This document shows, in pieces, positions 386 to 56,088 of a DNA stretch of 56,088 nucleotides (within the stretch, counting starts at the first letter, position 1; every line of letters starts with the position of its first letter). A model generated the notes under the pieces. It did no database searches and was not told the origin of the DNA. It was given only the letters and a program-made list of their open reading frames with translations. The DNA lies in contig MU271368.1 in assembly GCA_021432655.1 (NCBI GenBank), positions 24,929 through 81,016 on the forward strand. Direction: 5' to 3'. This stretch comes from Atractiella rhizophila. Lineage: Eukaryota. A program made the translations under genes and the position numbers.

Positions 386-1717
386 TGGATTGAATAGCGA
401 GAACAAGGTTGGTTGTGAGTGAAGTAGGAGAAACGTTGGATGGATGAAATGTGAAGTCTTGAGCGAGACATATGAGAATATTCTTCATCAGATTGGCGTG
501 AGAGAAACGCACTGGAAGAGGAAGTAAGATTGTAGCAACACCCAATCGCGATCAACACATCTTGACGTTCTGCACTCCCAGAGCTAACGAAAGCGCGCGA
601 TGTGTCCACAGTAAGATCTCCACAGGCGTGCAAAGCACAAACTAGCCTTCCCTCTTCCTTCTCCGCACGTCCTTCCTGCAGAATTTCTCATGCCATTCTC
701 ATCCAACACTTCCGTTTTCAACGTCAACATCCCTCTCTTATGTTCCTCTTCCTCCTTTTTCTTATATTTCAGACGGTTTGAAAATAACTTCTCTGCTCCA
801 GTGACTTGAGAGGAGCTGCCCTCAATCGCACAGACATCAAGAAGCAGTGGCTCTCCGGTCACAGCAACAGAGAGATGTGCTCGTCCGGATCCAATATCAA
901 TCGCGTTCTCAATTTGTGGTTTATGGCAGAGGAGCGTTTGGGCAAGTGCGATGAAGCGATCGACCTCATGCGCTTTCTTCGGAGACATGCCATGAGGCAA
1001 TCCGTCAGTAAAGGCTTTGGATGTGCTGGACATGGCGTGTGAAGACGAAGTCGCTTTAATTCCTTTGCCAGAGATTTCCCAGCTGAGAGGGGTTTGCCAC
1101 TTGGCTTTCGAGGGAGAGAGCATTCACGACAACGATCCGTGAATGCGTTCAGTGAAGCAAGAGCGTCCGGCTGGGCTGCACCGCAGCCAATATCTCTCGA
1201 AATGAAGATTAAGATTGCAGATAAATGTATGTGACAAGTTGTGAAGGGAATCTCCGGGAGCAGGGAAAGCCAATCCCTACATGCCCAACGACGTTGTAGG
1301 GTTGGGACAAAGCCACCGCGTTGAATATTGGTCTAAGCCATTTAATAGCGAGCAGGGGTATGTCCAAGACGGTGCTCTGCCATTGGTAAATAGACCCAAG
1401 ATATCATCAAAACCATTCAAGTTTACCGGGATGCGCAATGAAGTGCGATCTCAACGCAGCAAACACACCTTCACCTCCCCCCAACTCAGATTTTTGAACG
1501 TGGATTCCACAACACTCCTTGCGAGAATTCCGTCATACGATTCCCTCCCATTCACTTGGGACCATTTCTGCTGCTTTGTTCACATCAACGGTAGTTGGAT
1601 TGATAGGGGACTGTCTGAAGAAAGAATTGCTGGATGAGGAGCAGAGCCGAGCGACGGTGGAATCGTGAAGGAACTCGAGGTTTTTGCAAGTGAAAAGGCA
1701 GTTGGGTGGGAGCACTC
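386..1717 (-). pseudogene. METTL25/RRNAD1-like methyltransferase, copy 1 (3'-truncated, frameshifted)
   Basis: Motifs MSPKKAHEV, DIGSGRAHLS, LHACGDL, GCCY. Frameshift near 690, start codon lost, 3' end replaced by gene X sequence. Confidence 0.85.
1237..1397 (-). ncRNA. Candidate intronic two-hairpin (H/ACA-like) RNA, copy 1
   Basis: Lies in intron 1. Stems AATGGC.GAGCA/TGCTC.GCTATT and CCAACCCTACA/TGTAGGGATTGG, hinge AGACCA (ANANNA), ACA after the second hairpin. Confidence 0.4.
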
Positions 1718-1769
1718 TTTCGTCGAGGTCAAATTGAAACTTGAAACAAAAGATTGGTGCCTCAGTGTT

Positions 1770-2330
1770 GAGTCATGCCCTCCTCAACACGGTTCTTTGC
1801 TTCGCTCCATTTCCTCCGTTCCAACTCGGCGAGAGTTTGCGGCATCGACCACTGCATCCGCAACGCAACGTATCCAAACATCGAAGCACTCCTTCCTCCG
1901 ACAAACGCTCTTGCCTGCGCCTCCAACCCGGGCACTCAGACTATCAGCCACCATCGTTCCCGTCACCACTCCATCGTCCATCTCCTCCCCACTTCAACTT
2001 GTCGGATCCTCTCCAATCACGCCTATCGGATCGAACAACACGTAGCCAGTTAGGATGCGAGCAACAAACTCGCTAAAAACGACTGGTTCAACAGAGAACG
2101 AATGGGGAGGGAGAGCGAGCGGTGTATGTGTTGCCTTTCAAACCCGACGTTACGATACAGGGCAATGCGAGTCAGGCGCGGGAAATCAAAGACCAAATGG
2201 GAAAATGGGCTTCAAGCCGGATGGAATACTTGTCTCTGCTAGAGGTGGTTCGTTGCTTGGACGTGTGTTGATGGGACATGAAGCTGTACGCTGGGATCAC
2301 GGTGCGCTGGCACTCCTTATTATTTTTTTG
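1770..2330 (-). pseudogene. Fragment of degenerate repeated hypothetical gene Y
   Basis: Homologous to 5890-6470, about 28580-29010 and 55870-56088 (MDDGVVTGTM..CRRKECFDVWIRCV). Strand inferred, function unknown. Confidence 0.4.
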
Positions 2331-2349
2331 CATCTTGGCTGCTCGAAAC

Positions 2350-3686
2350 TGATGGATTGAGTAGCGAGAACAAGGTTGGTTGTGAGTGAAAGTAGGAGAA
2401 ACGTTGGATGGATGAAATGGGAAGTCTTGAGCGAGACACATGAGAATATTCTTCATCAGATTAGCGTGAGAGAAACGCACTTGATGAGGAAGTAAGATTG
2501 TAGCAACACCAATCGCGATCAAGACATCTCGACGTTCTGCACTCCCAGAGCTAACGAAAGCGCGCAACGTGTCGACAGTAAGATCTCCACAGTCATGCAA
2601 AGCACAAACGAACCTTCCCTCTTCCTTCTCCGCACGTCCTTCCTGCAGAATTCTCCTGATACCGTTCTCATCCAACACTTCCGCTTTCAACGTCAATGTT
2701 CCTATCTTCTCTTCCTCCTCCTCTTTCTTCTTATATTTCAAACGGTTTGAACTAACTTCTCTGCTCCAGTGACTTGAGAGGAGCTGCCCTCGATCGCACA
2801 GACATCAAGAAGGGGTGGCTCTCTGGTCAAAGCAGCAAAAAGGTGTGCTCGTCCGGATCCAATATCAATCGCGCTCTCAATTTGTGGTTTATCGCAGACA
2901 AGCGTTTGGGCAAGTGCGATGAAGCGATCGACCTCATGAGCTTTCTTCGGAGACATGCCATGAGGCAATCCTCTGGTGAACACTTTGGACGTGCTGGAGA
3001 TGGAGTGTGAACATGAAGTCGCTCTAATTCCTTTGCAATCGATTTCGCAGCTGAGAAGGGTCTGCCGTTTGGCTTCCGAGGAAGAGAGAATTCACGACAG
3101 CGGCCCGTGAATGCTTTCAGAGAAGCAGGAGCATCCGGCTAGACGGCATTTCAGCTATTTCTCGAATGAAGATTAAGATTGCAGATAAATGTATGTAACA
3201 AGTTGAGAAGGGAATCTCTGGGAGCAGGGAAAGCCAATTCCTACATGCCAATGGCGTTGTAGGGTTGGGACAAAGCCACCGCGTTGAATATTGGTCTAAG
3301 CCATTTCATAGCGAGCAGGGGTATGTCTAAGACGGTGCTCTGCCATTGGTAAATAGACCCAAAATCTCACCAAAAGCGATTCAAGGTTACAGAGGTGCGC
3401 AATGAAGCGCGCCATCTCTCAATTTCTTCCCAACAGAGGACACACACCTTCACCAACCCTCGACTCAAATTCTTTCGCGTGCCTTCCACGTCGCTATTTC
3501 TGTAGAGAGTTCCGTCATACCATTCCTGCCATTCGATCGCCTCAGCACATTACAGGTAGTAGGATTCGCAGGACTGTCTAAAGAAAGAATTGCTGGATGA
3601 GGAGCAGAGCCGAGTGATGGTGGAATCGTGAAGGAAACTCGAGGTTTCTGCAAGTGAAAAGGCAGCGGTGGGAACATTATCGACAT
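2350..3686 (-). pseudogene. METTL25/RRNAD1-like methyltransferase, copy 2
   Basis: ATG at 3686 (MSIMFPPLPF), KKAHEV, DIGSG, LHDCGDL. Frameshifts near 2745 and 2510. Same 3' truncation as copies 1 and 3. Confidence 0.85.
3201..3360 (-). ncRNA. Candidate intronic structured RNA, copy 2 (ACA mutated)
   Basis: Same conserved intronic block as 1237-1397; the ACA position reads TCA. Confidence 0.3.
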
Positions 3687-3749
3687 TCTCCGACGAGGTC
3701 AAATTGAAACTTGAACAAAAGATCCTAGCTGCAGTGCTGAGTCATAAGG

Positions 3750-4500
3750 AATGTTCGACTTCCTATGCGAATCTGCACTCGCTCGAGTATTATTACAGGT
3801 TGCCCACAATCGCATTTAAAAATGATGGCAACGTCTGCTCCATCCAATAGTTGAGTTGCGGTAGATACCCCTTGATCCCCATCCTAAATTTTCAAAGATG
3901 AACGGGAAGATGGGTACCGATTCCATTTAAATTGAGCATCAGTTGACTGATTTGGGGTGCAACGTTCAATAGATGCCACTTCTCAACTACCGTATTTCCA
4001 GTTGCTTCTCCATCCGCATAGTGGACAGTCCGCACCAAGTGTCCATTCCGAAAGGGAAACACAGGCATATTCAGCGACCAGACAATGAACAGTTCGACAC
4101 GCCCATAATAGGTGCCAAAAGGCATGAACACTGAAACAGCTCCATTCCAAACGGTAGGCAGAGATACATCTGTCTTCCTCCTTCTCAGAAGAGGAAATCA
4201 TGATTTCTTCAACACAACAGAGGCGCTTCGGTAACGGTAAAAGTGAGTCTCGCGCTCCAACGCAACATCTCGCTTCATGAATCTTTCCACCTGGACGATT
4301 TCACTGTTCCTCGACAAGCACAAACAGCAGCCGACCTTATCAAACGACATATCAGACGTTCCGATATTACCCTCAACCACTTCTGTTATCAACACTAGAC
4401 CCATACCTAGAGCAACACGATGCACTTCTCAGTAGTTTTCTAGAGTGCGACGGCCTTCTCCATGTAAAGGTGACTTTTTTTCCATCTTGGCTGCTCGAAA
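3750..4500 (-). pseudogene. Fragment of degenerate gene X
   Basis: ORFs 4198-4425 and 3892-4131. Homologous to about 22990-23830 and partly to 53620-53680. Confidence 0.45.
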
Positions 4501-4504
4501 CTGA

Positions 4505-5836
4505 TGGATTGAATAGCGAGAACAAGGTTGGTTGTGAGTGAAAGTAGGAGAAACATTGGATGGATGACATGGGAAGTCTTGAGCGAGACATATGAGAATA
4601 TTCTTCATCAGATTGGTGTGAGAGAAACACCGGAAGAGGAAGTAAGATTGTAGCAACACCCAATCGCGATCAAGACATCTTGACATTCCGCACTCGCAGA
4701 GCTAACGAAAGCGCGCAACGTGTCGACAGTAAGATCGCCACAGGCATGCAAAGCACACACGAGCCTCCCCTCTTCCTTCTCCGCACGTCCTTCCTGCAGA
4801 ATTTTCCTGATACCGTTCTCATCCAACACTTCCGCTTTCAACGTCAACATCCCTCTCTTCTCTTCCTCCTCCTTGTTATATTTCAAACGGTTCGAAACTA
4901 ACTTCTCTGCTCCAGTGACTTGAGAGGAGCTGCCCTCGATCGCACAAACATCAAGAAGCAGGGGCTCTCTGGTCAAAGCAGCAGAAAGGTGTGCTCGTCC
5001 GGATCCAATATCAATCGCGCTCTTAATCTGTGGTTCATTGGACAGGAGCGTTTGGGCAAGTGCAATGAAGCGATCGACCTCATGCGCTTTCCTCGGCGAC
5101 ATGCCGTGAGGCAATCCGCTAGTGAGCACTTTGGACGTTCTGGAGATGGAGTGCGAAGATGAAGCCGCTCCAATCGCTTTGCCATCGATTTCCCAGGCGA
5201 GAAAGGGTTTTCCACTTAGCTTCCGAGGGAGAGAGAATTCACGAAAACGATCCTGAATGCGTTCAGTGAAGCAAGAGCGTCCGGCTGGGCTGCACCTCAG
5301 CCAATATCTCTCGAAATGAAGATTAAGATTGCAGATAAATGTATGTGACAAGTTGTGAAGGGAATCTCCGGGGCAGGGAAAGCCAATTCCTACATGCCTA
5401 ATGACGTTGCAGGGTTGGGACAAAGCTACCGCGTTGAATATTGGTCTAAGCCATTTAATAGCGAGCAGGGGTATGTCCAAGACGGTGCTCTGCCATTGGT
5501 AATAGACCCAAAATATCATCAAAACCATTCAAGTTTACAGGGATGTCCAATGAAGTGCGCCATGTCTCAATTTCATCCCAACAGAGGACACACACCTTCA
5601 CCAACCCTCGACTCAAATTCTTTCGCGTGCCTTCCACGTCGCTATTTCCGTAGAGAGTTCCGTCATACCATTCCTGCCATCGATCGCCTCAGCACATTAC
5701 AGGTAGTCGGGTTGGTAGGACTGTCTAAAGAAAGTATTGCTGGATGAGGAGCAGAGCCGAGCGGTGGTGGAATCGTGAAGAAAGTCGAGTCTTCTTTGCA
5801 AATGAAAAGGCAGCGGCGGGAGGACTATTGACAATC
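4505..5836 (-). pseudogene. METTL25/RRNAD1-like methyltransferase, copy 3 (3'-truncated)
   Basis: ORF 4608-5528 contains MSPRKAHEV, DIGSGRAHLS, LHACGDL, GCCY. Start codon reads TTG. C-terminal exon replaced by gene X. Confidence 0.85.
5351..5509 (-). ncRNA. Candidate intronic structured RNA, copy 3
   Basis: Same conserved block with AGACCA hinge and ACA. Confidence 0.4.
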
Positions 5837-5889: not shown

Positions 5890-7130
5890 CTTCAGCGTGA
5901 GTCATGCCCTCCGCCCTCAACACAGTTTTGGCTCGCTCCCTTTAAATTTCCTCCGTTGCGACTCGGCGAGATGTTGCGGTATCGACCACTGCATCCGCTC
6001 ACAACGCAACGTATCCAAACATCGAAACACTCCTTCCTCCGGCAAACGAGTTCTTGCCCGTGCTTACACTCGTGCCCTCGGATTGTTAACCTCATCGTTC
6101 CTGTCACCACTCCATCGTCCATCTCCTCCCATCCTCAACTTGTCGATCCTCTCCAATCACGACCGTCGACTTGAACGACACGTAGCCAGTTAAGATGCGA
6201 GCAACGAACTCGCCAAAAACGATTGTTTGAAGAGAGGAGAGCGGATGGGGATGGAGAGCGAGCGGTGTATGTGTTGCCTTTCAACCCCGAGGTTGTGATA
6301 CAGGGCAATGCGAGTCAGGCGCGGGAAATCAAAGACCAAATGGGAAAGCGGGCTTCAAGCGGCATAGAATACATGTCTGTGTTGGGGGTGGTGGATTGCA
6401 TGGAGTAGTGTTGATGGGACATGAAGAAGTACGCTGGGATCAGAGTGCGCTTGCACTCCTTATCCTCCTCTGCATGAGGGCCACAGCTGATTCGTTCAAC
6501 CAAATGAGCAGTACCAGTCCCTGTTATCGAAACGAGAGGAGCGGCATCGCTCCACGCCTCCCTCCTTGCCTCATACACGGACCACAGTGCGCCGACTCCA
6601 AAACTCGTGTCATTGGAAGCAATAACCTTTGTCGGCTCGGTAGGGCCCAAAGACACTCTCGAAAGAATGTATAAGGCGTTGCCATACTCACAAAGGAGGC
6701 GTAACGAGTGTGATAGTTGAAGACTTAAGGGTAGTGGACATGATTGAACGCTTTGCTGGTTCGTCTTCCTACCTGCTTGCTTTCATCAACAAAATCGTCT
6801 GGGGCTTATAGGGATCGATAGAGACCATCAAATCCTCGTCAAACCTGCCGTCGTAGGTCTTGCACCTTTTTATGCAGATGGAGCGCCGGAGCACTTGAAG
6901 AAGATATTCAAGGGATCTGCTGAAGGACAGAGCAGCCGTGTTTGACGTTTTTGTTTGTGGAGGTAGTCAGGTGTCAATGGCGAAATTGATGGAGTGAAAA
7001 CCACGGTTTGAGGACGTGCCGTTGGGGGATATTAAGGTCTTTCTTAACTGGATCTGTGACGGTGGCATTTCGTTTCCACAAACCTGATCTCAACAAAATC
7101 TGGCTTAACGGTATCGTTGTATCTCATTTG
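5890..7130 (-). pseudogene. Degenerate gene Y / NLR 3' flank
   Basis: Homologous to about 28580-29580 and 8640-9100. Fragmented ORFs with stops. No domain recognised. Confidence 0.35.
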
Positions 7131-7619
7131 GACTTCCAGATACCAACGGATCCTGTTGATATGTCAAGGCACAAATGACGCATCCTCCATTCAAGACTTT
7201 ATGACAGCTGACAGCATTGCTTTGATGAAGAGTTACATCCTGCAATAGGAGGTCAGCTTGCACAAAGCAGTAGCGTTAGAGCACTACCTGAATCATTTTG
7301 ACGCGTAGTCGTTGATCTCTCCGCTTCATCGATGTTCTGAAGCAGATTGTCGCAATTATTGACGTCGGAAGTGGCAAAACAATCCGAGTAAAGCTGACGG
7401 GCGCGACTAACTTCCTCTCGCGCGACGGGGTATTGGGACGATTGGAAGAGGAGTTGGGCCAGATTCTGTCTGCTCCGAGCTTCGTAGTAGCCGCCAACTG
7501 CTTTGCTCAAATTGACTGCTTCCTGCAGAACGTCGATTGCTTTGAACACACTCTGGGAGTCTCCAGTGTAAACCGTGCTTATATTGAAAAGACAATTAAG
7601 TTGACCTCCTAGATCTTGA

Positions 7620-8365
7620 GCCAGCAGGTACAGCTCCTTTGCGTCCTCGAAACGGCTCAGCGCTTCCTCCATCCGACCCCGATGCTGCTCAATCGCCCCG
7701 ATGCTGCGAATGCAGTGTGCTTGGCCCTGCCGATCTTCTACCACCTGATACAGCTCCTTTGCCTCCTCGAAATGGCTCAGCGCTTCATCCATCTGACCGC
7801 GATGCTGCTCGATCTCCCCAATACTGCGAATACAATGAGCTTGCCCTGGTTGATATTCTACCACCTGGTACAGCTCCTTCGCCTCCTCGAAACACCCCAG
7901 CGCTTCCTCCATCTGACCCCGATGCTGCTCAATCTCCCCGATGCTGCGAATGCAGTGGGCTAGCCCCAGCCGATCTTCTACCATCTGGTACAGCTCCTTC
8001 GCCTCCTCAAAATGCCGCAGCGCTTCCTCCATCCGACCCCGATGCTGCTCAATCTTCCCGATGCCGCGAATGCAGTGGGCTAGCCCCAGCCGATCTTCTA
8101 CCATCTGGTACAGCTCCTTCGCGTCCTCAAAACGCCGCAGCGCTTCCTCCGTCTGACCCCGATGCTGCTCAATCTCGCCGATGCTGTGAATGCAGTGGGC
8201 TTGCCCCTGCCGATCTTCTACCGCCTGGTACAGCTCTTTCGCCTCCTCGAAACAGCTGAGCGCTTCCTTCATCCGACCCCGATGCTGTGAATGCAGTGGG
8301 CTTGCCCCCGCCGATCTTCTACCACCTGATATAGCTCCTTCGCCTCCTCAAAATGTTTTAAGGCT
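7620..8365 (-). repeat. 120-bp TPR tandem array, about 6 units (one with a 19-nt deletion)
   Basis: EEAKELYQVVEDRQGQAHCIRSIGEIEQHRGQMEEAL repeated with a 120-nt period. Confidence 0.92.
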
Positions 8366-8638
8366 GTTTGAGGAATTCCCTGCTGTTGAAATGCAAGACC
8401 CATTGCCATTTTCAATTCCGCTTTGACATTCATTTGGAAACTATTGGATTTCGTGGTTGACAAAGCCTGCTGCAACAGTTTGATTGAGAGATGGTGCTGG
8501 AGATACTGAAAGCGCCACATTTCCACAAGGAAATGGACCAACATTGTCGAATCCTGCAGATGTTCAAAACCAACCAGAAGCACATATTCAAGGTTTGCAT
8601 GGTCGTTGCGGAAACACAACAACCCTATCCGTTCACCA

Positions 8639-9817
8639 GAAACAATGTTTAAGGCGTTGGCCTACTCACAAAAGGAGGCGTAATGAGTGTGGGAGTTGAA
8701 GACGTAAGGGGACATGATTGAACGCTTTGCTGGTTCGTCTCCACTCGCCTTGTTTCATTAACAGAAGTCCTGATGCTTATAGGGATCGATAGATGACCAT
8801 CACATCCTCGTCGAACCCGCCGTCGCGGCTCTTGCACTTTTCTATGCAGATGGAGTGCCAGAACTCTTGAAGAAGACATGCAAGGATCTGCTGAAGGATA
8901 GAGCACTGGTGTTTGTCATTGTTGTTTGTGGAGGGATTCAGGAGTCGATGGCGAAGTGGATGGAGTGGAAGAGACGATTTGATGATGTGGCGCTGGGGGT
9001 TATTAAGGTCTTTCGTGGCTGGATGGTGAAGGTGACGGTTCGTTTCCAGAAACCTGATCCCACCAAATATGGTTACACGGCATCGTTATATCTCATTTAG
9101 ACTTCCATATACCAATGGAACCTGTTGAAATATCAAGGCCTCCATCCATGACTTTATGATAGCTGACAACATTGCTTAGACGAAGCGTTACGTCCTGCAA
9201 CAGGATATCAGCTTGCACAAAGCAGTGACGTTAGAGCACTACCTGAATCATTTTGACGCGTCGTCGTTAATCTTTCCGTTTCATCAATCTTCTGAAGCAG
9301 ATTGTCGCAGTCATCTACATCGGAAGTGGCAAAACAATCCGAGTAAAGCTGACGGGCGCGACTAACTTCCTCTCGCGCGACGAGGTATTGGGACGTTCGG
9401 AAGAGGAGTTGGGCCAGGTTCTTTCTACTCCGAGCTTCGTAGTAGCCGCCAACTGCTTTGCTCAAATTGACTGCTTCCTGCAGAACGTCAATTGCTTTGA
9501 ACATACTCTGGGGGTCTCCAGCATAAAGCTCACTTATGTTGAAAAGACAGTTAAGTTGACCTCCTAGGTCTTGATCCAGGAGGTACAGCTCCTTTGCCTC
9601 CTCAAAATGGCTCAGCGCTTCATCCATCTGACCCCGATGCTGCTCGATCCCCCCAATACTGCAAATACAATGAGCTTGCCCTGGTTGATATTCTACCACC
9701 TGGTACAGCTCTTTCGCCTCCTCGAAACGGCTGAGCGCTTCCTCCATCAGACCCCGACGCTGCTGGATCTTCCCGATGCCGCGAATGCAGTGGGCTTGCC
9801 CCTGCCGATCTTCTACC
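8639..9817 (-). repeat. Diverged duplicate of the NLR 3' end and downstream flank (paralogous to about 6661-7900)
   Basis: gaaacaatgtttaaggcgtt at 8639 matches gaaagaatgtataaggcgtt at 6661. Carries the same C-terminal cap QNDSGSALT.LLCAS. Confidence 0.85.
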
Positions 9818-9842
9818 NNNNNNNNNNNNNNNNNNNNNNNNN
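9818..9842. other. Assembly gap (25 N) at a TPR array
   Basis: Run of n. Confidence 0.99.
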
Positions 9843-36988: not shown

Positions 36989-36994
36989 ATTTGC

Positions 36995-39939: not shown

Positions 39940-40054
39940 AACAGATTGCTGTTCTCGAAAGCACTGGGCGACACTGGCCTCTGCACTTTTTCGGCACCAA
40001 CTACACTGCCCATTCACTACTTGAGCACTGAGCTGGCCCTGCAAGTTTCCAGGG
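39940..40054. repeat. Orphan CACTA-type terminus (GCACT repeats ending CCCTGCAAGTTTCCAGGG)
   Basis: Direct-orientation relative of 52212-52242. Confidence 0.5.
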
Positions 40055-43000: not shown

Positions 43001-43746
43001 ACATGTTGGAGTCACGGGTGGCATGAATAGCTGCACCATCTGTAGACACAATGAAGACAGATTCACGTTCATCCTCCATAAAGCCAATGTTGTCCTGAGT
43101 GAGTGCTTGAACCGCCGTACTATGATGGAAGTCGTTGTATCTGTAGCCGCTCTTCAGCTTGTCGATCAGGTACTCTGTTTTTTGCCAAAGCCTCCTTCAG
43201 CTTCCTCCCAAAGTATCCCATTATCTCAGCAGTCTGTGGTGCCCGGAACAATGCTTTGATTCGATGGAGGGGCTGCAGAAGAGAGAAGAGAAACCTCTTC
43301 TCAGTCTTCCTTTTATCTGGCGTCACGTGTCCTGGGATTGCAGAGCGCCCAAACGAAATCGCATAGCGTGGTCTATCGCACGCAGGGTACAATCTGTCCA
43401 TTGATCATGCGAGAGTGCGGGCATCTGCAGCAGTTTGTGAGTTTATCAAGTCCATTCATTCTACAAAGAGATGAGTCTTACCGCTCTAGCCCCTCGTACT
43501 TCCCAAGATAGGAGCTGCAAGAAGCTCCACGCATTGGCAACCACTCTCCTTTCAACCCATTCAGTTCAGCGACAATCTTCTTTGCTTCTGGCAGGGTATG
43601 TATTTCATGGTGACCCTGATAGCTTGCTTCCTTGTCGTTGTTTCGATGCCAGACTTGGAACTCATCCAATGTAAGCTGCTGTTTGTCGTCAAGCTCAGGG
43701 ATGTTGTCCTGATAAGTTGGAGGAAGAGCAGGAAGGTGATCAGAGC

Positions 43747-46700
43747 TAGGGATGGCTATCGGATCGTAATTTTCTGCCGTACATGAACGATACGTGTTTC
43801 CGTACCCGACCGTCCAACTCTTCCACCATACTAGCACCGATACGATACGATACGATACGTCTGCCTTCCCGTGCCGTCCGGCTTGGATTGCCTTGACACG
43901 GCGGAATCCGTGATGGAGTCTGGTTCTACAGCCATGAGTTTGTATTTCGTATTCCCTGTTCACTTGTGTCGAAACGACATCTCAAATTATTCTGCAAGGG
44001 GCACGAGCCATACTCGAAACTGCACCTGAAACCTTCTCGAAGGCCTTCATGCTTCACTCTCCTTCGTCGATCTGACACCACGACCCAGTCTATAAAATGT
44101 GCCTTCCTTTCAGCTCGGATCAGACAAGTTCTTCGGACTTTCCCTTTCGCTTTCGCATAGCAATCATGGTTCCTCAGGAAGACCGGCAGAAGAGACCTCA
44201 AAGGCAACATAAGCTGAGGGAAATTGTTAAATGGAATAATGAGGATGGAACTGCTTTGAGTGAGATGCAGAGGAAGCGAGGGTTGGAAGTGGAGTGAGTT
44301 CTTATAAAGTCTGTCCATGGGTGACTGACTGGTGTCAAGGTTGACAGGCATCTGTGGCTATGCTTGTCTCAAGACTCTTATCACTGCAAGTGGGAGCATG
44401 CCCTGCATTGCTAATGCGGTACGTTCTCACACTTTATGTGGAGAACAGTGTAACATGCAAGGGATAGCAACAGTCAGCTCTTTACCATCAAGCGACATCT
44501 CTTCTTGCTCAAGTGGAATCTCAATCTGAAGACAATGACAACCCGTTCCATGCTGCTCTCTTCGGATGGCACGCTTCATCTGTCAACGATGTTGGTTATC
44601 AAGATGGTCTGAAAGCGTTTGCTACTCTGTGGAAGGAGCTTCAAACGTCCCCCTCTTCGGTTCCTGAAGTCATTCTTCGTGCTTGTAAAGCATATCTATG
44701 TGCAGCCACAGAGCACATCCACGCTATTCTTCTGCCTGAAGGTCTCATTAATCCGATAGGACCAGATGGAGCTTTCACAGTCAATGAGAAGGATCAGCAC
44801 CAAGAGGAGGAGGAGGATGCAAAGTTGGAGCCTGACCCCATTGATATCGAGGCAGCTGAGATTGCAGAGATATTACCATTGAAAATTGATGGCTCAAAGA
44901 AGGACAACAAGCGGAGAAAGGTGTGCTCTACATGATGTGCCTGTGAAACGTCTGACGATAGCTAAATTGTGGACAGCTTCATTCTGATGGCTCCATTGTT
45001 GCAAAGTCAACTTTCCGGGGCACTAACCAAACGGCAACTGAAGACATTGTATGTACGCTACATTGCTGTCAAAATGCTGATTGGTGGAAGCACAGGGTTT
45101 AGCAGTCACCTACAGTCACCGCCGTGCAGTTGTCTATTACTTCTACCATTCCTTAAAATGGGAGGATGTTCCTGGATATCTCAAACCGAAGCATAAAGAA
45201 GGCGATAAGTACTTTAAGTGCAATCATTGCCCTAGAGTCGTTCGCCCTTCAGCTGCCAGCAATGGCAATACAAGGACTCTCCATAATCACTTGGAAAATC
45301 ATGGGCGCTCAATCACGTCATTCTTCAGCTTTTTGAAGGAAAAGCAGGACAAGGAGATGGCGATCACGGAGGAGGAAATGCAGAAGGCAGCAGGCATAAT
45401 ACCAGTTCGTCCCTTTGCGTTGCAGAGTCATTCATTTAGAGTTCTCATGTACATCGGAAATTCCATCTAGGTTGATTCGAAAGATGGATCCAGAGCTGCA
45501 AGAAAGGGCCAAGGAATCGACGACATCCTGTGACAAGTAGCAAAGAAGTATGGCTCACAGGTTTGTGGCTCTTTCAGAAATCAGTAGGTGCTGACCATAT
45601 GATACATAGGGTTTTAATTCTACTATCTTCAAGGACCTCCTTACTCACTTTGTTGTCGAAGAAGACCTTCCATTCAGCATTGTAAAAAGACCATCCTTTC
45701 AGGAACTTGTAATATATCTTCAGTGGGCACTACCGTCTGCCTCTAAGATTGAAATTTCTGATACTGAAAATGAAGGACTCCGCTTTTTGGAAGAAGAGAA
45801 TAGTGACAAGAAGTTTGAAATACCAAGCCGAAAGGTTCTGAAGGAGCGTATATGTAAGGTTGCTTTGAAAACTACAGAAGAAATGGCTAGATATCTAAAA
45901 GGTGCATACTTGGACGCTTTTGTAACAGCCTACTGAAGCATGAGGAAAGGCTACTGGAACCAAGATCCATCTCTCACTTAATAACTGGACTTCAGAAAAT
46001 CACTATGCATTCCTCTGTGTTAATGCACACTTCATTGATAGCAAGTGGGACTTGAATGAGGTATGTGTCGGGTTTGAAGAACTCATTGGCCCACATACAG
46101 GGGAGAACATGGCGGATGTCATTATGAAAATAGTTGATAAGTATGGAGTGGCTGATCAAGTATCTGCTTTAATTATATTTCATGCATATTCGTTAACGGT
46201 TGTCCAGATTTGATGCTTTGTCACTGATGGAGCTTCAAACAATCGAACAATGCTGACCGGGATTGAGCAACGAATGAAGAAGCGAGGCATCGACTTTGAT
46301 GCTTCTGAGCACCACATTCTTTGTATGCCCCATATCGTTCACCTTGCAGTTCTCGCCCTCCTAGACTTTCTCAATGTATGGCCAAATCTCGGTCAGCTAC
46401 GAAGGCGAAAGAGAGGACGGATACGATGAGTGGGCATCCGACAGAAGTTACATCACTTTCACGGGACGTCAACTATCAGGAGTGTGTCACGGAGAACCCA
46501 GCAAATGAACAGATGGATGCAGGGAAACTAGGCGAGGAAGAGCTGAACGGAATGGAGACAGATTTCGAGCAGATTAGAGGAGCAATCCCCAAGGTATATC
46601 TTATGCTCTATCATTCCTTATCATTAATCAGAGGAGCAGGTGCGAGCAATCATTAAGCATATACATGGGTCTCCTCAGCGCCAGCAGAGCTGGTTCGATC

Positions 46701-48096
46701 TTTTGGAAGATGCTCTCAAGCAATTTGAAAGCATAGCCGAAAAATCCCTTCGTATGTTGATCCTTGACGTGCAAACACGCTGGGGATCAACACATGACAT
46801 GCTTGACCTTGGAATTCGCTATAAGGATGTCATTGAAGCTTATCTGGATCGTCATGAGCTTCCAAGTTCACTGCACCTCAGCGAAAAAGAGTGGAATTCG
46901 ATTGAACAGGTTTGTTATCTCTTAGAGCTATACTATTACTGAATAGCTGGGTTCAGGTCTGCAGATGGCTTGCAGTTTTTCAACAGGCAACCTATGACAT
47001 GTCAATGACCAAGTCCTCCTGCCTCTCACAAACTCTTGGCGTCTACCATTCTCTCCTAGGACACCTGAAGACCGAAATCTCAAGTCTTACGGACAAGACA
47101 GTTCAGAAAGAGTACTAGCAAGCTTTGCTTGACTGTTACTATAAGCTTAGTGAGTATCACTACCGCTCTGATCTTTCACTTTATTACATCTATGCTATCA
47201 GTATGTCATTTTTGTTCTGCCCTTGCTCTGCAATGAGTCTGACTTTGGAACAGTTTGCGACCCTCGTCATGGTGTCACTTTCCTTGACTCTTCAGTCTTT
47301 GATAGTGAACGTCATGAGGTCTTGCAGCACAAGGAGAATTTCATCACTCTTTTCAGATATCACTACTATAAGACACCTGTCAATCCTCCTGAACCAACTT
47401 CTCCCCGCTCAAAATCCTCCAGACAATCCACGAAGGCAAAGCCGAATTTAACAGCTGCTTTCCTTGCTTCCCTTCAGCACGGGTTTACTCCTGGAGCTAG
47501 CGAGGATCCTGTCATAAAAGAGATTAACCATTTATTTAGACATAGTGTGTTACCTTGGGATTCTGATCCATTGGCTTTCTGGAAATATGAATCAACTCAC
47601 AATCTCCCGAACCTTTCATGGTTGGCTCGGGACATTTTGTCAATTCCCGGTGAGCTTTCTTTCTCTTTTGTTATCCTTTATAATAATAGAGCTGGCAGGT
47701 TGTGCTGTTGGAGTTGAGCGCATCTTCTCAGGTACACGCGATACTCTAGGTATTCGTCGCAGTCGCTTGGATGCCAAAACCATTCGTGATCTCATTCTTC
47801 TCAAGACCGCACTCTGGATGCAGAGGGGAGCTCACCTTAGGGATCTTCACAGGCAATTGAAAGCGTTGGAAGGGGATGTTTTGAAGGCAGCCAAATAGAG
47901 TAGCAGGAGAAAAATGAGATACAATGCAAAACACTTGGGACATAACCCATATTACGGACGGATGACGCGGTCTGCAGTCGGACTGGCCCGTTTTTGATAA
48001 ATTGAGTGACACTCCGACACGGTACGAGGATGGCTTAATGCTCGTACCGCTCGGAATAGTGAAATCCGTTACGATACGAGCCAATAGCCATCCCTA
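43747..48096 (+). mobile_element. hAT (Ac-like) DNA transposon, 4350 bp
   Basis: TIR TAGGGATGGCTAT (13 bp perfect). 8-bp TSD ATCAGAGC at 43739-43746 and 48097-48104. Subterminal (CGATA)4 at 43838-43857. Confidence 0.95.
44167..47898 (+). pseudogene. hAT transposase (BED finger, DDE core, dimerisation domain), inactivated
   Basis: CNHC..LHNHLENH; EEDLPFSIV; LNNWTS; TDGASNN; CMPH; DVQTRWGST; WLARDILSIPG|CAVGVERIFS. Stops at 46211-13 and 47116-18. Start approximate. Confidence 0.88.
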
Positions 48097-49105
48097 ATCA
48101 GAGCCGTCATCGAAGAGTGGCATAAGGATATCGTGGACCTCGCTGCAATCCAAGGTTCAAGCATTAGCACATTCTTTTTTACTTAGAATATTAGTACTTA
48201 CGACAATGGTAGAGCATGTGTGAGCGCCGCAGCTCCAGCAGGCCGAGCGGCATTGTCAGGATTCGGATTGTAGTATGCCTCCTCATCGTCTCAGGGGCAG
48301 ACCCAGCAAGCCTCACGTCCTCTTCCCTCAGCTCCCCCAACAAATCTCCTCCATCCCCTATTTGTACATCACTTTCATCTTGAAGATCGGGTCCTCCATC
48401 CACCATCTCTCTGTCGCTTTCATCCTCACGTTGAAGATTTGATCCCTGATCAAGATCAAGATCAGACAGATTGGGCTGCGCCATGTTGAGGCGATAAGAC
48501 TGAAGATCAGAGGCTGGGTGCGTGGAATTTCGTTGCTGGAGCTTGAGCTGGACCTTGGAGGCATAGGGGATGCTCCATGGATGTATCAGGTGGAGGTTGG
48601 TGTTCAGGTTCTTCAAATAGACGCCTGAAGACGCGATGGTGTCAACGTGTAGAGCTGCAGGTGTTTCGACATGCATCTTGTCGTCCTCTTCTTTCTTTTT
48701 CCTGGCTCAAGCTCTGGTGGGAGGATATGGTGATGAAGAATCCCTTGTAGGCCGTATGGTGTTCGAAGACGATGGTAAGGCGAGATGGAGTTGGAAGAAG
48801 TGGAACTCATTAAAAGAGGGGTTAGGATGATGTTCACAATGAATATTATTATGATCATCACAGCATATCTAAGGGCTCAGATAAGGTGAGACTCAGCTCT
48901 GACAATGCTTAAATCAGGAATTCTAATAAGGCTACCTGTTATTGTGCAGATGTGCATTAAGCATGCGTTAAGTTCAGACATTGCAATTCCGCCAGGGCAA
49001 GTGGACGACGACAAACGCTTTCCATACTCCACCTCTTTGCATTATCGGCTCACCTAACAACTATCAACATTCCCTCAATAACCTCCTGTTCGTACCTCAA
49101 TCGAG

Positions 49106-50020
49106 ATGTCACGAGAAGACGAGTCCTTTTCCGTTCATATCCAAATTACCACTCTCTGTGACCTCTTATTGAATCTTTATGTGCAGGAGCTTGAGTTGAA
49201 GGTGTTTGAGCTGGAGAGCTCTTTGGTGAGGGAACAGATGGATAAAGATAAGTGGAAGAAGTTCTACATGGAGAAGGATGAGGAGGTGGATCGTTTGAAG
49301 CTGGAGCTCGACAAGGCCAAGAAGTTGCTTCTACCTGCGAACTCGATGTCGAAACGTCACGCAGAAAGCAGGACGATGACGCCTTCCGAAGCTGGTGTTG
49401 ATTCTTCAGCAGACGATTGGATCAAGAAGCCTGTCAAACCATACCGGCCCATCATCAGCAAAGAAGATGTTGACGAACTTGGGATCTTTTGGGAACACAA
49501 GCAAGCTGCAGCCTGCACACGAACTGGTATTCAGAACAATCTCCTCAATCCGGTCCAGGTGCTGCACCAGCTTGTCTTTCACGAAACGGACAATACTGTT
49601 GTTGCAGCAACACAACTGTCAGTGAGAACCGCCGATGTCATACGAAATGATGCGACCTTCTACACGAAATCCTATCTGGACACTACAAAATTGATTAAGA
49701 ACCAGACTAGACTCTGCAGGACCACGTATCTCCCAAATATCCTCCGTAGGCTCAAGGCAGATTACAGCTCAGTTCCCTGCCTTGGGAAGACTGACTGGAT
49801 GGCACGTATCTTTGTAACATCTGTGCTATGGAATACCAGCGGAAGTTCATACAACAACGAAGATGAACAGGACTCTGGGCATGCCGAGGAAGGAGGCCGG
49901 ACTGTTATGAGAGGAGTGAAGAGGAAGCACGATGTGGACGGGTTTGTGGGTTCGAGGGAAAAGAGAAATAGAGTGCAGCTTTTCGAAGGAGATCAGGATA
50001 AGCGGCTCTCATTAATGTGA
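49106..50020 (+). CDS. Hypothetical coiled-coil protein, probable CACTA accessory gene
   Basis: 304-aa ORF divergent from Tnp2 with heptad-like ELELKVFELESSL..EVDRLKLELDKAK. True start may be spliced. Confidence 0.55.
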   Translation: MSREDESFSVHIQITTLCDLLLNLYVQELELKVFELESSLVREQMDKDKWKKFYMEKDEEVDRLKLELDKAKKLLLPANSMSKRHAESRTMTPSEAGVDSSADDWIKKPVKPYRPIISKEDVDELGIFWEHKQAAACTRTGIQNNLLNPVQVLHQLVFHETDNTVVAATQLSVRTADVIRNDATFYTKSYLDTTKLIKNQTRLCRTTYLPNILRRLKADYSSVPCLGKTDWMARIFVTSVLWNTSGSSYNNEDEQDSGHAEEGGRTVMRGVKRKHDVDGFVGSREKRNRVQLFEGDQDKRLSLM

Positions 50021-50298
50021 ACTTAGAAGGGATTGTACTGAACAACCCAGTGGAAGGTCTACGAGGACCAGAGAATTTGAAGATGCAGAGCAAGAAGAGA
50101 GTGAGAGCAGTCGTGCGCACACATCCTTTATGTGTCACAGACCCCATCGTGCTGATTCATTTGTTTTCTATCAGGCTGACTTGCCAACTGATCCACTCAG
50201 GGCAAACACGACTTGGACCAGTCAGGACGAGGTAGTTAAGAAAACCTACCCACCCAGCATTATTAAGGCAGCAATCAGTTTGTCCCCTTCTTTTGGCC

Positions 50299-51890
50299 AT
50301 GTTGCCTTCTGACGGGATGATAGATGACCTCAAAGCTATGGTTATTGACGACCGCTGTCTCACTAACCTCAATGTACTCAGCACGTTCCTCATAGATGGA
50401 GTACTGCCTCTCTTCCATGCCGATTCCCACACAAACGACAGTGATACACTTGCCCAAACGACTACGAAACGCCTTCTAGCAGCCATCACGTGTGCAGAAT
50501 GTGATGTCAAGCTTCCAGTCACTACTGACGACGAAGAGTACACCTCTGAGGACCTGCGAAACAACGCTCGAGGGGATCCACTTGGCCACAACAGCCTTGG
50601 GGAGGAGACCCTGCTTGGCTTGAGGAGATGGGAGAATGTGGGTTCGCAGGAGGCGAATGGAGAGCTGCTGTAAGCTGTGTTAAAAGGTGCAAAGATCGCA
50701 CAGCGGTTGTGTCAGCGATGGAAGGAAGGACATCCTGATTCGACGGAGGCAGCACGTTTACTTCTGAGCGTTGGCTGCATTGGGAGATTGGCGGAGAGTA
50801 TGGTTGAAGCTTGGCTGGATGGAGGTGGGAGCAATGCTGTGACCGTGAAGTCCTTTCTTACTCTTGCAAGATGCTGTTTAAGCTGATTTAGTACAAGGAT
50901 GCACAATCAGCCAAAGAACTCAAGGCACCATGGTGCCGGCTGAATATTCGAAAGCACTCCAAGATAAGATGCAGCTTCAAGATCGCCTTGCAGATTCGAT
51001 CGAGATCGCAAAAGAGAAGGCTTCCAAAGTCGAACAACGTCAGACTTATCATCCCCCTCCGCACCAGTGGTCTCCCTTCTCCTCCCCACATAACTATGGT
51101 TCTGCTCCTCCCATTTGTGCCAGTCAGGTTCCCCTCCTGCTGAGCATGGACTCAGTCCCGCTCCTCCTCCACATTGCGATGACGATGCTCCTGCACCTGT
51201 AGGTGACACCAATCCCATTCATCCCGTTCTGGGGAGGCAGGCAGCACTACCAATCCTTCCCTGCCTCATCTGGATAGTGGTGGTCTCTTCCCTTTCCACA
51301 TCCACCCTGCACCGCTGAAGCTGGGACAGGGGCAAGTGAATGAAGGCACTGTGGGCAAGAAGAAGAGAGGGACGGCAAAGAAGATCGCTGAGGATACCGG
51401 TGGGCCATCTCCGGATGAAGTTGTGAAGGTGCGTGAGGACGTAGAGAAACTGCGGCCGCTGCTGGACAAGCCGGATTCCATGGCACAACTGGTTGAGGCA
51501 AAAAAAATGGCGAAGGACAGTAGCTGGAACGCGGATCATTAGAAAAAGATGTTTCAACATCAGGTAAGCGTTGACTTTCTCCTGGCTAAGTCCTTACGGC
51601 AGTTTAGGAGTATAACAAAGAAGTCATGATTATGAAATTCAATTCCATCGATAGAAGAATAATGGAACTTCTCAGGCTGCTCAAGTAGGACCAGGACAAA
51701 GAGAGTGCTGGTAACAATGCAAGCGGAAGCGGTGGCAGTAGTGGTGTAGATTCTGCGGGGAGGGCAGAGAGGCGACTGCTACGACGACGACGATAACAAG
51801 GAGGGATCGAGGAGGATAAAGTCGTTGAGTGGAGTGGAATGGGAAGGGCTGGAGGCGGATTAGGGTGAACAGGGGCATGTTGAACGGATG
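50299..51890 (+). CDS. Hypothetical multi-exon or degenerate gene inside the CACTA element
   Basis: Successive + strand ORFs (50293-50673, 50677-50886, 50930-51202, 51336-51542) with GTAAG donors and some stops. Confidence 0.35.
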
Positions 51891-51959
51891 GCATTGGGAA
51901 TGTAATTTGAGGATAGGGGAACGTAATGCGATTATCCATTTCAAGAGACAAATCTAACA

Positions 51960-52242
51960 AACCTAGGGAGTGACTGAGACGCGACTAGAACAGCACTAGA
52001 CGTGGACTGGCGAAAGCACTGATTCTCGGCACTGAGGCAACACTGACAAGGCACACGATGGGCACTAAAAGCCCCAGAAATCATTTTCAAAGAAAAGCAC
52101 CCACTAGGCACTAAAAGCACCAAAGGTGCACTGCTGCGGAGCCAAATTTCGGCCCTAAAACTGCTCTCAGCATGCACTGTTTTAGCTGGTAGTGCCTTGA
52201 GTGACTAGGTCGGCACTAAGCCAGCCCTGCAAGGTTCCAGGG
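51960..52242. repeat. CACTA right terminus with GCACT subterminal repeats
   Basis: Dense GCACT motifs ending in CAGGG. Its reverse complement CCCTG fits the CMCWR terminus of CMC-superfamily elements. Confidence 0.6.
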
Positions 52243-54030
52243 AATCACGTTTAGTGTGCTTCAGCTTGTGTTCACTTTTGCTCATGTTTCTTTATTATTC
52301 AGCATTCCCTTATTACAATTGCCCTGTCAGTGCGAGACCCGTGTTTTTATTTAGTCTTGCAACTCATAGTCGTCTTTCGCAGTGCTCCCCAAAGTTCCTG
52401 ATTCCTCTTGGCTCGAAATTGAATCGTTCACACTCCTGATCGCACACTGTTCGCTCCATGAGGCGACAGGATTGCAAGTTATCATTGGCTATGCCTCGTC
52501 GGGTTATATGAGGTGAGGTGCTGGTCGATCTCATGGGTTGATAGAAATATTGGAGACAAAAGGATGGCAGGCGTCAAGAATAACACTTTGATGTATGCTG
52601 TTGCTTCGTCACCCTTTGTCAATAAAAAGCATATCCAAAGATCAAACATGACCAGGAAGGACAAAGAGTTCGTCAGCACATTCCTGAGAAGAGTTGAACG
52701 CACCACGATTTCCGATCGAGTCTCTTTTCAAAGCAACCGCCAACCTAACCGCTACGTCGTGCCGCCCAGTTCTCCTAACCCTCTAGTCGCTCATCTTCCT
52801 GCACATAACCTCTAACGATTGGTGCCCCATGACCCATCCTTCAAGGGAAAAGAGTGGCGCATTGACCGTGGACTTGACAGGCAAGTAGCAAATTGATTTC
52901 ACTGATCGACGCGCAACGTTGGAACTCTGATGGCGGTGACTTAGAACTAGAGGAGTTGTCCACATGGACTCTGAAATAGAAACAACTTGAGCTCTGCTAC
53001 CAGAGAGGGCGGCGCTGCATGCGAGGGTACCACACACTCTTCCTCCTATCACGACGGCTAGTGCGGCTTTGAGGACAGAAGAGTATCAGTTGCCGCGGTA
53101 CGACAATGGAGTGAATGCAATAAGGTCCATTACGCTCGAAAAGACCCCGCTAGCTTTGTCTGTGGTGCAGGCAGGGTAGAAAGGCAGCCGACATGTCGAT
53201 TGAGTGCCTGTGTGGATTGCTTGCAAAGGAAGAGCAGAAGCGGGAGCACCATTATCTTCTTCTTCAGCACAGGCGAGGTTTGATGGCGGATGAATTGTAG
53301 AGGAGCTTGATGGAAAAGAAGGCGTCTGTATCTAAATCGCCTGTGTTCCTCCAGCAAGGTACCTCCTCAATTTGAGCTGTATTTGATCCATCAACGTCTA
53401 GTCTGCACAGGCCTCCACGCTTTCCGTTGACCGATTTGAGGTCATGGGGTTTCTCGTCGCAGTTATTGAGCAGTCCTGAAAGACTGGACGTGGTGTTTCT
53501 GGGGTAGTGTAAAGCTGCATGATGATCAAATTTGCCAGCGGGACGTCGTAGCAGTAGTTCGTTCAATCTAGGCACAATTCATACTTCAGTGGTGGCTGCC
53601 AGAACTGATATCACACGGCCATTCGACTTCCTGTGAATTTGAACTTGCTCGACTACTGTTCCAGGCCACCCACAATAGCGAGTATGAAAATAATATGAAA
53701 ATCGATGGGGACGTTTGCTGTAGATCCCCATTCTAAATTGTCAAGGATGGACAGGAAGATTGCCACCGATTCCATCTAAATCGAGCATTAGTGGACTGAC
53801 TGGCACTGCCTCAACGTTGGCTGAAATATATCCACAGGTTGCGGAGCGTGCTCTGTGGTAAGCATTTTTCATCATCTGAGTCGCGAACGTCAAAACGATC
53901 TCTACAGAGTTGTGGTCGGTGCTGCTCTTGCGTTACCTGCCAATGCGCCCGAACTTGTTAAGAAATCTCGTGCAATCCTTCTTTCTAAATTCGAGATTTA
54001 GCGTGTCTTGTGTTCTTTCATTGGAATCTT

Positions 54031-55818
54031 TTAATGTAGAACGATAGCTAGGTTTCTTGCACTACCGCTTTCCTCCTGATCAAACAGATTCCACAATTCC
54101 AGCCTAAGCTCCTTGCCCGTATTTTCGTCTACAGCCAGTCGCTCTTGCAACAACAAAGCAAGCCCAGTGAATCTCTCCAACACAATATAGCTCTCCAACA
54201 CCGGTCCGAGAAGACATCTGAGTGTCCAAAAGAACATGAACGTCTACTTGAGGTTCAAGTGGTGCAACGTCATTCTCGTTGAGATGCATCTTCTTCAACG
54301 CTTTTGAGCGAAAGGTCTCGTACGAAAGAAAACAAGAGTCCGCCAGTCTACCCACCCTGTTCTCAGAAGGAGAAGGACCTTGAGATGTGTTGAGCTCTAC
54401 TTGAAGACGTGCTCGATAGACAAGTTTGCGCATGGATAGTTTGGCGGCTTCCCAGGATGGGAGATTGAGTGGCGAGAACAAAGTGGTTGTGAGTGAAAGT
54501 AGGAGAAATGTTAGATGGATGGAATGGGAAGTCTTGAACAAGACATATGAGACTATTCTACAACAGATTTGTCCGAGAGACACGCACTGGCAGAGGAAGT
54601 AAGATTGTAGCAACACCCAATCGCGATCAAGACATCTTGACGTTCTGCACTCCCCAAGCTAACGAAAGCACGCAACGTGTCGACAGTAAGATCTCCACAG
54701 GCATGCAAAGCACAAACGAGCCTCGCTCATCCTTATCCGCACGTCTTTCTTGCAGAATTTTTGTGACTCCGTTCTCATCCAACAGTTCCGTTTTCAACGT
54801 CAACATCCCTCTCTTATGTTCCTCTTCCTTTTTCTTATATTTCAGACGGGTTGAAACTAACTTCTCTGCTCCAGTGACTTGAGAGGAGCTGCCCTCGATC
54901 GCACAGACATCAAGAAGCAGTGGCTCTCCGGTCACAACAACAGAGAGATGTGCTCGTCCGGATCCAATATCAATCGCGTTCTCAATTTGTGGTTTATGGC
55001 AGAGGAGCGTTTGGGCAAGTGCGATGAAGCGATCGACCTCAATTGCGCTTTCTTCGGAGACATGCCATGAGGCAATCCGCTAGAGAACACTTTGGACGTG
55101 CTGGAGATGGAGTGCGAAGATGAAGCCGCTCCAATCGCTTTGCCATCGATTTCCCAGCTGAGAAGGGGTTTGCCACTTGGCTTCCGAGGAAGGGAGAATT
55201 CACGACAAGGGTCCGTGAATGCTTTCAGAGAAGCGGGAGCGTCTGGCTAAGCGGCATTTCAGCCAGGTACACCCTGATGCAGAAATTAGATTGCAGAAAT
55301 TTGTACAACGTATGTAACAAGATATGAAAGGAATCTCCGGGAGCAGGGAAAGCCAACTCATACATGCCCACTGACGTTGCAGGGTTGGGACAAAGCCACC
55401 GTGTTGAATTTTGGTCTAAGCCATTTAATAGCGAGTAGGAGTATGTCCAAGACGGTGCTCTGCCATTGATAAATAGACCCAAGATATCATCAAAAGCATT
55501 CAAGTTTACAGGGATGTCCAATGAAGTGCGACTTGTCTCAATTTCTTCTCAAGAGAGGAAACACACCGTCACCTACCCCGACTCAGATTGTTCAATGCGG
55601 ATTCCACAACACTACCTCCCAAACTTCCGTCGTACCATCCCTCCCATTCGCTTGGGACCATTTCTCCTGCCCTGTTCACATCAAAGGTAGTTGGATTGAT
55701 AGGGGACTGTCTAAAGAAAGAATTGCTGGATGAGGTGCAGAGCCGAGTGATGGTGGAATCGTGAAGGAAACTCGAGGTTTCTGCAAGTGAAAGGCAGCGG
55801 TGGGAGCACTTTCGACAT
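54031..55818 (-). pseudogene. METTL25/RRNAD1-like methyltransferase, copy 5 (full length, frameshifted)
   Basis: Colinear with copy 4. Indels near 55040, 54720, 54458 (23-nt deletion) and 54240. Confidence 0.88.
55320..55480 (-). ncRNA. Candidate intronic structured RNA, copy 5
   Basis: Same block with AGACCA hinge and ATA at the ACA position. Confidence 0.35.
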
Positions 55819-55869
55819 TCTTTCGTCGATGTCAAATTGAAACTCGGACAAGTGTCGGTGCCTGCTTCA

Positions 55870-56088
55870 GGTTTGAGTCATGCCCTCCGCCCCCAATACC
55901 TGGCTTCGCTCCTTTTAAATTTCCTCCGTTGCAACTCGGCGAGACGTTGCGGCATCGACCACTGTATCCGCTCACAACGCAACGTATCCAAACATCAAAA
56001 CACTCCTTCCTCCGACAAACGCTCTTGCCTGCGCCTCCAACCCGTGCACTCAGACTATCAACCACCATCGTTCCCGTCACCACTCCAT
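55870..56088 (-). pseudogene. Gene Y fragment running off the window
   Basis: Homologous to 1770-1975 and 5890-6115. Confidence 0.4.

Follow-up and report, generated by a model that had tools for sequence, protein, structure and literature searches.

In Neurospora crassa the plp-1 and sec-9 genes are linked, and this pair, together with HET-Z1 of Podospora and VIC2 of Cryphonectria, is among the closest described counterparts of the locus we consider here, a 56,088-nucleotide stretch of the Atractiella rhizophila genome (C189:24929-81016, hereafter the window, from a fragmented assembly of 51.5 Mb in 1,998 contigs) in which METTL25-like methyltransferase genes are repeated alongside genes for NOD-like receptors (NLRs). 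The NLRs of this locus resemble those three systems in their patatin-NB-ARC-tetratricopeptide repeat (TPR) architecture, their intact P-loop and their housekeeping-type neighbours. PLP-1 requires patatin activity and binds a SNARE (PMC12881547; 10.1101/2022.04.03.486892; here and below, published sources are cited for the portions available to us). In contrast, the catalytic Asp motif appears to be absent here and the predicted neighbours include no SNARE, being instead a PF13679 methyltransferase, a PALP enzyme, a GNAT acetyltransferase and a gene for a small peptide. The neighbour copies are mostly broken, and allelic divergence is not in excess. Judged from its sequence, the array shares the PLP-1 architecture without being a PLP-1/SEC-9 system, and we consider it highly probable that it is a tandem NLR array under birth and death in which the methyltransferase is a passenger.

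The array also resembles the NLR clusters of the Sordariales (PMC12258605) and Podospora (PMC13449251), in which several NLRs lie within 40 kb, many of them pseudogenised, with transposons nearby and highly similar internal repeats (here the 120-bp TPR units), and at least two of its NLRs fall within 40 kb and eight genes of each other, which is how a cluster is delimited in PMC12258605. Unequal crossing-over, gene conversion and pseudogenisation are described for fungal NLR clusters (PMC12258605; PMC13449251), and both patatin heads and highly similar repeats have been described in fungal NLRs (PMC4986451). However, a Sordariales cluster contains two to five NLRs, and paralogous copies account for only 16 of 272 (PMC12258605), whereas here about 11 close paralogues form a strict tandem array that copies whole neighbour genes, and this in the Pucciniomycotina.

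The methyltransferase is related to METTL25 and METTL25B (RRNAD1; Methyltransf_32), the function of the latter being inferred from annotation (PMC8662637), and shares 36–39% identity with single proteins of Pseudohyphozyma and Sporobolomyces, unlike which it is present in about 13 mostly broken copies. Another repeated gene encodes an L-serine dehydratase (PALP, SDS/CHA1 type) with a complete copy at the array edge and internal copies that lack exon 1 and decay neutrally, and so acts as a built-in passenger control. Our literature search found no report tying METTL25-like genes to NLRs or describing this locus, and the word ‘methyltransferase’ does not occur in the main text of PMC12258605 or PMC4986451, whose supplementary domain tables could list such a domain.

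Structure of the tandem array

Self-BLAST found five methyltransferase-homologous segments in the window, mutually 84–90% identical and each with a PF13679 match, in agreement with a first-pass annotation made from the letters alone, which had also correctly recognised the METTL25-like and patatin-NB-ARC-TPR genes and a basidiomycete source. All five copies, two patatin-NB-ARC-TPR genes and two NLR fragments lie on the minus strand in one tandem array (the patatin, NB-ARC and TPR matches from Pfam are at 9153–12122 and 31680–35915), with the local order GNAT / METTL25-like / cysteine-rich peptide / X / patatin-NB-ARC-TPR / serine dehydratase and single-copy housekeeping genes on either side. 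The same annotation had proposed a recurring same-strand order of X, methyltransferase, Y and NLR; the order does recur, well above chance (BLAST E = 0.0), but Y, the dehydratase, is on the plus strand. Similarly, what it called co-amplified cassettes are repeats, but they are consecutive units of one array interrupted by two transposon islands, and the methyltransferase and NLR were not amplified as an intact unit: at 388–5831 three methyltransferases follow one another with no NLR in between, and two deletions (junctions near 8637 and 31680 in the assembly sequence) fuse one NLR or NLR tail to the middle of another with the methyltransferase gone. The cysteine-rich peptide gene is also part of the block, as is, in a single instance, a GNAT gene that has been cut. 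At one end the block stops near dehydratase intron 1 and at the other a few dozen bases before the methyltransferase ATG, and segments with the same order are found on contigs C189, C57, C564, C869, C1278 and C1514.

A complete two-NLR array, free of N gaps, is present at 27.5–51.1 kb on C57 in the order NAD synthase, glycosyltransferase, sugar transporter, intact methyltransferase, NLR, broken dehydratase, broken methyltransferase, NLR, intact dehydratase, GH20-type gene and RED-like gene, an anatomy explained by a tandem duplication whose ends cut through both flanking genes.

The NLR architecture was confirmed by PF01734, PF00931 and TPR matches and includes the P-loop, and a complete intact NLR (a 1,551-aa model) is located at about 6.5–11.3 kb on C189, upstream of the window. 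The patatin Ser elbow is retained in 23 of 24 loci while the DG-type Asp motif is missing in all 23 complete loci; it is likewise missing in 7/7 patatin representatives at ≥45% identity, whereas 109 of 138 more distant representatives have it. We also note that the oxyanion loop of the patatin head (34977–35915 and 23 other loci) is altered, yet the head is under purifying selection (omega 0.36). These features suggest that it is probably a pseudo-lipase effector in a very large NLR family, as the patatin query gave at least 132 matches in the genome (counted as pieces, with 128 of 227 candidates scored), the closest relatives being on array contigs. Six positions of the 40-aa TPR unit take at least four residues among 13 units, with an overall omega of 0.47. 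At C17:181500-186000 an NLR near the contig end is accompanied by a dehydratase remnant and no methyltransferase match, and this may be an outlying copy or an array edge.

Methyltransferase copies and their history

We aligned 13 methyltransferase copies (leaving out short fragments on C1514 and at 28.2 kb on C57, and dropping an identical copy at 4 kb on C189 from the statistics) and found three without lesions: the window copy at 25312–27136, the C57 edge copy and a partial copy on C1278. The other ten, nine of them distinct, are broken, and eight of these nine have an early –1 frameshift at 27096/7 in common. In all nine, similarity to the native upstream DNA is gone within about 60 nt of the start, and in none does a single frame run across motif I, the HACG motif and the C-terminus. 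Both NLRs and four of the five methyltransferases in the window are broken, and the one intact copy retains native upstream DNA. Its open reading frame (ORF) matches Methyltransf_32 (PF13679, E 1.8e-18) and aligns over its full length, with motif I and the HACGDL and CCY motifs in place; the predicted fold is that of a class I S-adenosylmethionine methyltransferase (pLDDT 80), and structure searches with the model returned generic class I methyltransferases only. Intron 1 (26567–26878) is unusually long at 312 nt, with its first half 89% conserved compared to 80% for exon 1, and a search for non-coding RNAs across the window gave no Rfam match at E up to 1.

Selection was assessed with omega (dN/dS) counted against the observed mutation spectrum; it should be noted that the tests treat recombining copies as independent and that p-values are overstated. 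For private substitutions, omega was 0.41 for patatin, 0.46 for NB-ARC and 0.98 for the dehydratase. The methyltransferase exon 1 and exon 2 trees conflict, and the pairwise identities of NB-ARC domains and of the methyltransferases downstream show no correlation across 10 pairs (Spearman –0.11 to 0.35, not significant), so that the units are mosaics and not fixed pairs. The array thus has the features of birth-and-death evolution, with intact and pseudogenised NLR copies mixed, mosaic paralogues and a core under purifying selection. Non-coding DNA immediately 3′ of the methyltransferase stop is 92.5% identical among copies, level with exon 3, which indicates that much of the similarity between copies comes from recent exchange. 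The ORF-intact copies are dS 0.04–0.14 apart over exons 2–3, and exon 2 end branches are 0.05–0.07 for seven of the nine broken copies compared to 0.005–0.019 for the intact ones. Putative methyltransferase alleles (dN 0.030 / dS 0.139) are similar in divergence to those of NAD synthase (0.029 / 0.124) and the dehydratase (0.035 / 0.121), all within one assembly.

Genome searches, in which the best candidates only were scored, gave 15 methyltransferase DNA matches on six contigs and none outside the array; all 16 matches to the PF13679 profile and 27 of 28 matches to an outgroup protein were also on array contigs, the remaining one having an E of 0.34. The separate canonical METTL25 ortholog that had been expected was therefore not found, and the intact array copies are the only candidates for it. 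No methyltransferase lies beside the NLRs in the 11 non-array stretches compared. A metagenome scan with a single METTL25-like protein found nothing, but a scan with the alignment gave 70 loci, six of which have long ortholog matches in one copy each among housekeeping genes. None of these six has a patatin, NB-ARC or TPR match, and a Pfam comparison covering 75 of the 99 long ORFs from five of the loci found no NLR domains. At three metagenome loci (L144, L145 and L146) the ortholog sits between 2-oxoglutarate dehydrogenase E1 and PPC89/Cep57-type genes, a conserved neighbourhood without NLRs.

We favour the passenger explanation because two unrelated neighbours were amplified in the same block, because the broken methyltransferases lack native upstream DNA and nearly all carry one and the same frameshift, because NLR and methyltransferase histories are uncorrelated, and because allele divergence is no higher than in flanking housekeeping genes and the metagenome loci have no NLR. 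Passive hitch-hiking, which the first-pass annotation had held to be equally possible, is supported by these observations, and the guardee, decoy or modifier partner that it had proposed is not.

In the sequence of events we propose, a first tandem duplication would have created the junction between dehydratase intron 1 and the DNA upstream of the methyltransferase, by which internal dehydratases would have lost exon 1 and internal methyltransferases their promoter, and the NLR would have been copied whole. A second breakpoint, within GNAT (28482), brought along 1.35 kb of native upstream DNA for the methyltransferase copy that has an intact ORF. Selection would act on the NLR, in which the TPRs would be the sensor, the P-loop the switch and the patatin head probably non-catalytic, and the ordinary role of the methyltransferase would be kept by one to three intact copies. 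We regard the locus as a clear case of an amplifying NLR dragging host genes with it, in which the junctions, intact edge copies and a neutral control are all visible, and as a caution that co-amplification with an NLR is not proof of partnership with it; the captured neighbours are also plausible raw material for integrated domains.

Evidence against a passenger role and alternative explanations

Several observations weigh against the methyltransferase being simply a passenger. The broken copies are not fully neutral: omega is 0.71 for private (p = 0.014) and 0.53 for shared substitutions, and changes affect 16 of 371 ortholog-invariant positions compared to 246 of 2,636 others. The broken methyltransferases are 89% identical to the intact gene compared to 78% for the dehydratase copies, and intron 2 (85%) is less conserved than the flanking exons (93–94%), a pattern that recent conversion would not by itself produce. 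Either the copies descend from divergent alleles that were functional, which accounts for the constraint, or they must have worked for some time after being duplicated. Run X2, treated as RNA-like solely from its intron-type joints and compared over window 21300–37300, includes two contigs spliced at methyltransferase intron 2, one matching C1278 and the other matching, among the copies compared, only broken copy 2, and at least one broken copy thus seems to be transcribed. Both complete ORF-intact copies are changed at His154 of the KKxHEV motif (window about 26675), a residue invariant in seven outgroups and retained in C1278; the window copy has Asp at this position and the C57 copy has Arg. 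Finally, the NLRs are themselves mostly damaged, as the 11 patatin-bearing array copies include one complete intact gene and about three which gaps or contig ends make undecidable.

Readings in which the methyltransferase is a decoy or an integrated domain would accommodate some of these points, though even jointly we judge them unlikely. In one, which we find quite improbable, the array would be a nursery of decoys in which the His154-changed ORF-intact copies are baits watched by pseudo-patatin NLRs and the spliced, His-retaining C1278 copy is the housekeeping enzyme; the constraint on broken copies would then record earlier baits or spliced NLR-to-methyltransferase fusions. In another, the methyltransferase is, or lately was, an NLR guardee or decoy as SEC-9 is for PLP-1, with the His154-changed copies disabled decoys and the His-retaining copy a working enzyme. 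Such a partner would fit the close linkage in most units and the residual constraint on exons 2–3 (omega 0.60 and 0.64), and an adjacent NLR and housekeeping-type partner are known in Botrytis (10.1101/2022.04.03.486892), but the dehydratase and peptide genes are linked just as closely, and the unit is often deleted or shuffled in ways that separate NLRs from methyltransferases. A partner would also fit the two different non-conservative changes at the invariant His154, among just one and two changes at 46 invariant sites; however, the His-changed copy is the sole intact one on C57, and a tolerated change fits equally well. With 9 of 12 distinct copies broken, histories uncorrelated and no surplus amino-acid divergence between putative alleles, we consider a guardee or decoy very improbable. 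A decoy, if confirmed, would take the guard model past SNAREs, give the METTL25 family a role and provide, within the literature searched, the first basidiomycete NLR partner from an RNA/protein methyltransferase family, which the evidence does not favour.

It is also highly improbable that most of the amplification is an assembly artefact of collapsed or misjoined repeats and two haplotypes, although parts of the assembly invite this explanation. The last 5,413 bp of the window (50676–56088), which hold the fifth methyltransferase copy, are 100% identical to C189:1-5413 and may be either a very recent duplicate or an assembly overlap. NLR 2 differs from the intact C189 NLR by about 10% in the patatin domain but between 31680 and 34500 at only eight positions and by a single indel (a 1,410-bp run of TPRs matches another NLR at 99.9% identity), so it could be a recent chimera or a collapsed repeat, and there are N gaps within NLRs. 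The left flank of the locus is found on both C57 and C852 at 93–99% identity, with several PALP genes paired, so that two haplotypes are assembled in part. A second haplotype of the right flank was looked for and not found, and the long array may lie on the other haplotype; C57, with two NLR units between unique flanks and about nine more elsewhere (C189, C564, C869, C1278, C1514, C1074 and C1361), possibly reflects a large haplotype difference in copy number. Against an artefact, most copies are 5–16% different and each has its own lesions, the identical 5,413-bp copies continue differently (83% over the next 600 nt), and contigs from runs X1 and X2, which may not be independent of the assembly, cross without differences the 28482 junction, at which GNAT and the dehydratase remnant meet on the same strand.

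Least probable of all is an integrated domain, in which the NLR would be spliced to the methyltransferase downstream of it and the dehydratase remnant would serve as the intron. The public 527-aa model KAH8921947.1 is built in this way and couples TPRs with PF13679, and frameshift events are denser in exon 1 (11 events in 258 nt) than in exons 2–3 (20 in 1,200 nt; p = 0.014, hand-counted). Against this reading, both halves of that model are fragments (the TPR half without patatin or P-loop, the methyltransferase half without its last third), the required donor is GTTAGT in just two of eight copies, the last NLR intron, which is conserved, is in phase 1 and has an acceptor of its own some 50 nt away while methyltransferase exon 2 starts in phase 0, and all copies behind an NLR via the common junction carry exon 2–3 lesions.

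Neighbouring genes and other features of the window

Table 1. Features of the window (positions count from its first letter).
Feature	Position	Strand	Remarks
METTL25-like pseudogene 1	388..1721	-	No ATG, several frameshifts, 3′ third deleted
Serine dehydratase pseudogene piece (‘Y’)	1830..2333	+	Begins in intron 1
METTL25-like pseudogene 2	2355..3683	-	Frameshifts, 3′ third deleted; letters match one spliced run X2 contig
‘X’ spacer	3742..4448	.	Array only, no family
METTL25-like pseudogene 3	4507..5831	-	No ATG, frameshifts, 3′ third deleted; methyltransferase half of model KAH8921947.1
Serine dehydratase pseudogene (‘Y’)	5967..7043	+	Without exon 1
Orphan NLR fragment	7198..8633	-	End of helical region, 5.5 TPR units of 120 bp, C-terminus; patatin and P-loop absent
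3′ piece of serine dehydratase pseudogene	8639..9032	+	
NLR 1 (patatin-NB-ARC-TPR)	9153..12122	-	Nine frameshifts; 25-N gap at 9818-9842
Plavaka transposase (PF18759) and DUF6532 insertion	13037..21539	.	8.5 kb; splits one array unit
Cysteine-rich peptide gene, exon 1 (signal-peptide-like)	23908..24018	-	Separated by 1.06-kb inversion from its other exons
Cysteine-rich peptide gene, exons 2-4	25014..25231	+	
ORF-intact METTL25-like gene, 485 aa	25312..27136	-	Exons 27136-26879, 26566-25912, 25856-25312; = KAH8921956.1
GNAT acetyltransferase gene, divergent native neighbour	27544..28482	+	Premature stop near 28116; cut at 28482, joined to dehydratase remnant
Serine dehydratase pseudogene (‘Y’)	28546..29513	+	Without exon 1
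Orphan NLR fragment	29650..31679	-	NB-ARC after P-loop, about 3 TPR units, C-terminus
NLR 2	31680..35915	-	Asp-less patatin with stop at codon 314 (34976), NB-ARC, 14 TPR units, C-terminus lost at 31680
Transposon nest (Transposase_21 and hAT dimerisation matches)	36742..52393	.	15.6 kb; splits one array unit
Truncated cysteine-rich peptide gene (last exons)	53805..53960	+	
METTL25-like pseudogene 5	54034..55815	-	Seven frameshifts; within 5,413-bp stretch identical to contig start
Next serine dehydratase pseudogene, start	55940..56088	+	

The dehydratase at the C57 array edge has a complete 369-aa ORF (PALP E 2.1e-25; the best PDB match is the L-serine dehydratase 1pwe, E 1.5e-26), and 14 of the 16 dehydratase stretches we aligned have frameshifts, the two without lesions being of the edge type. 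Copies in the window start at nt 205 of the gene or later, in intron 1 or beyond. Exon 1 is thus missing from them, and with it the SFK lysine that we take to be the pyridoxal phosphate-binding residue.

The predicted peptide gene is restricted to the array and lies tail to tail with the methyltransferase; its four exons would encode a secreted peptide of 76 aa with a signal-peptide-like start and ten cysteines in the last 24 residues (CC-x2-C-x3-C-x2-CC-x-C-x2-C-x-C-x3-C). Only one of ten copies is intact (C564, about 8150–8600), and there intron 1 requires an AAG acceptor. No homologues were found with the exon 1 ORF as query, a weak test as the cysteine-rich part is outside the query. No gene could be recognised in ‘X’, for which all 12 matches were on array contigs and contained stops, with no Pfam match and no usable Atlas match.

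The GNAT gene has six intron-type joints in run X2, four of which read as GT..AG, and the copy on C852 has a Pfam GNAT match. At C57:27514-29325 the 5′ end of the methyltransferase is locally duplicated alongside an apparent 0.6-kb GNAT deletion, and this haplotype may be without an intact GNAT, or the region may be misassembled. The last 808 bp of the 5,413-bp stretch are also found on C1514, which then continues differently, and the transposon nest includes two long ORFs at 49082–50670 (312 and 145 aa) with no Pfam match.

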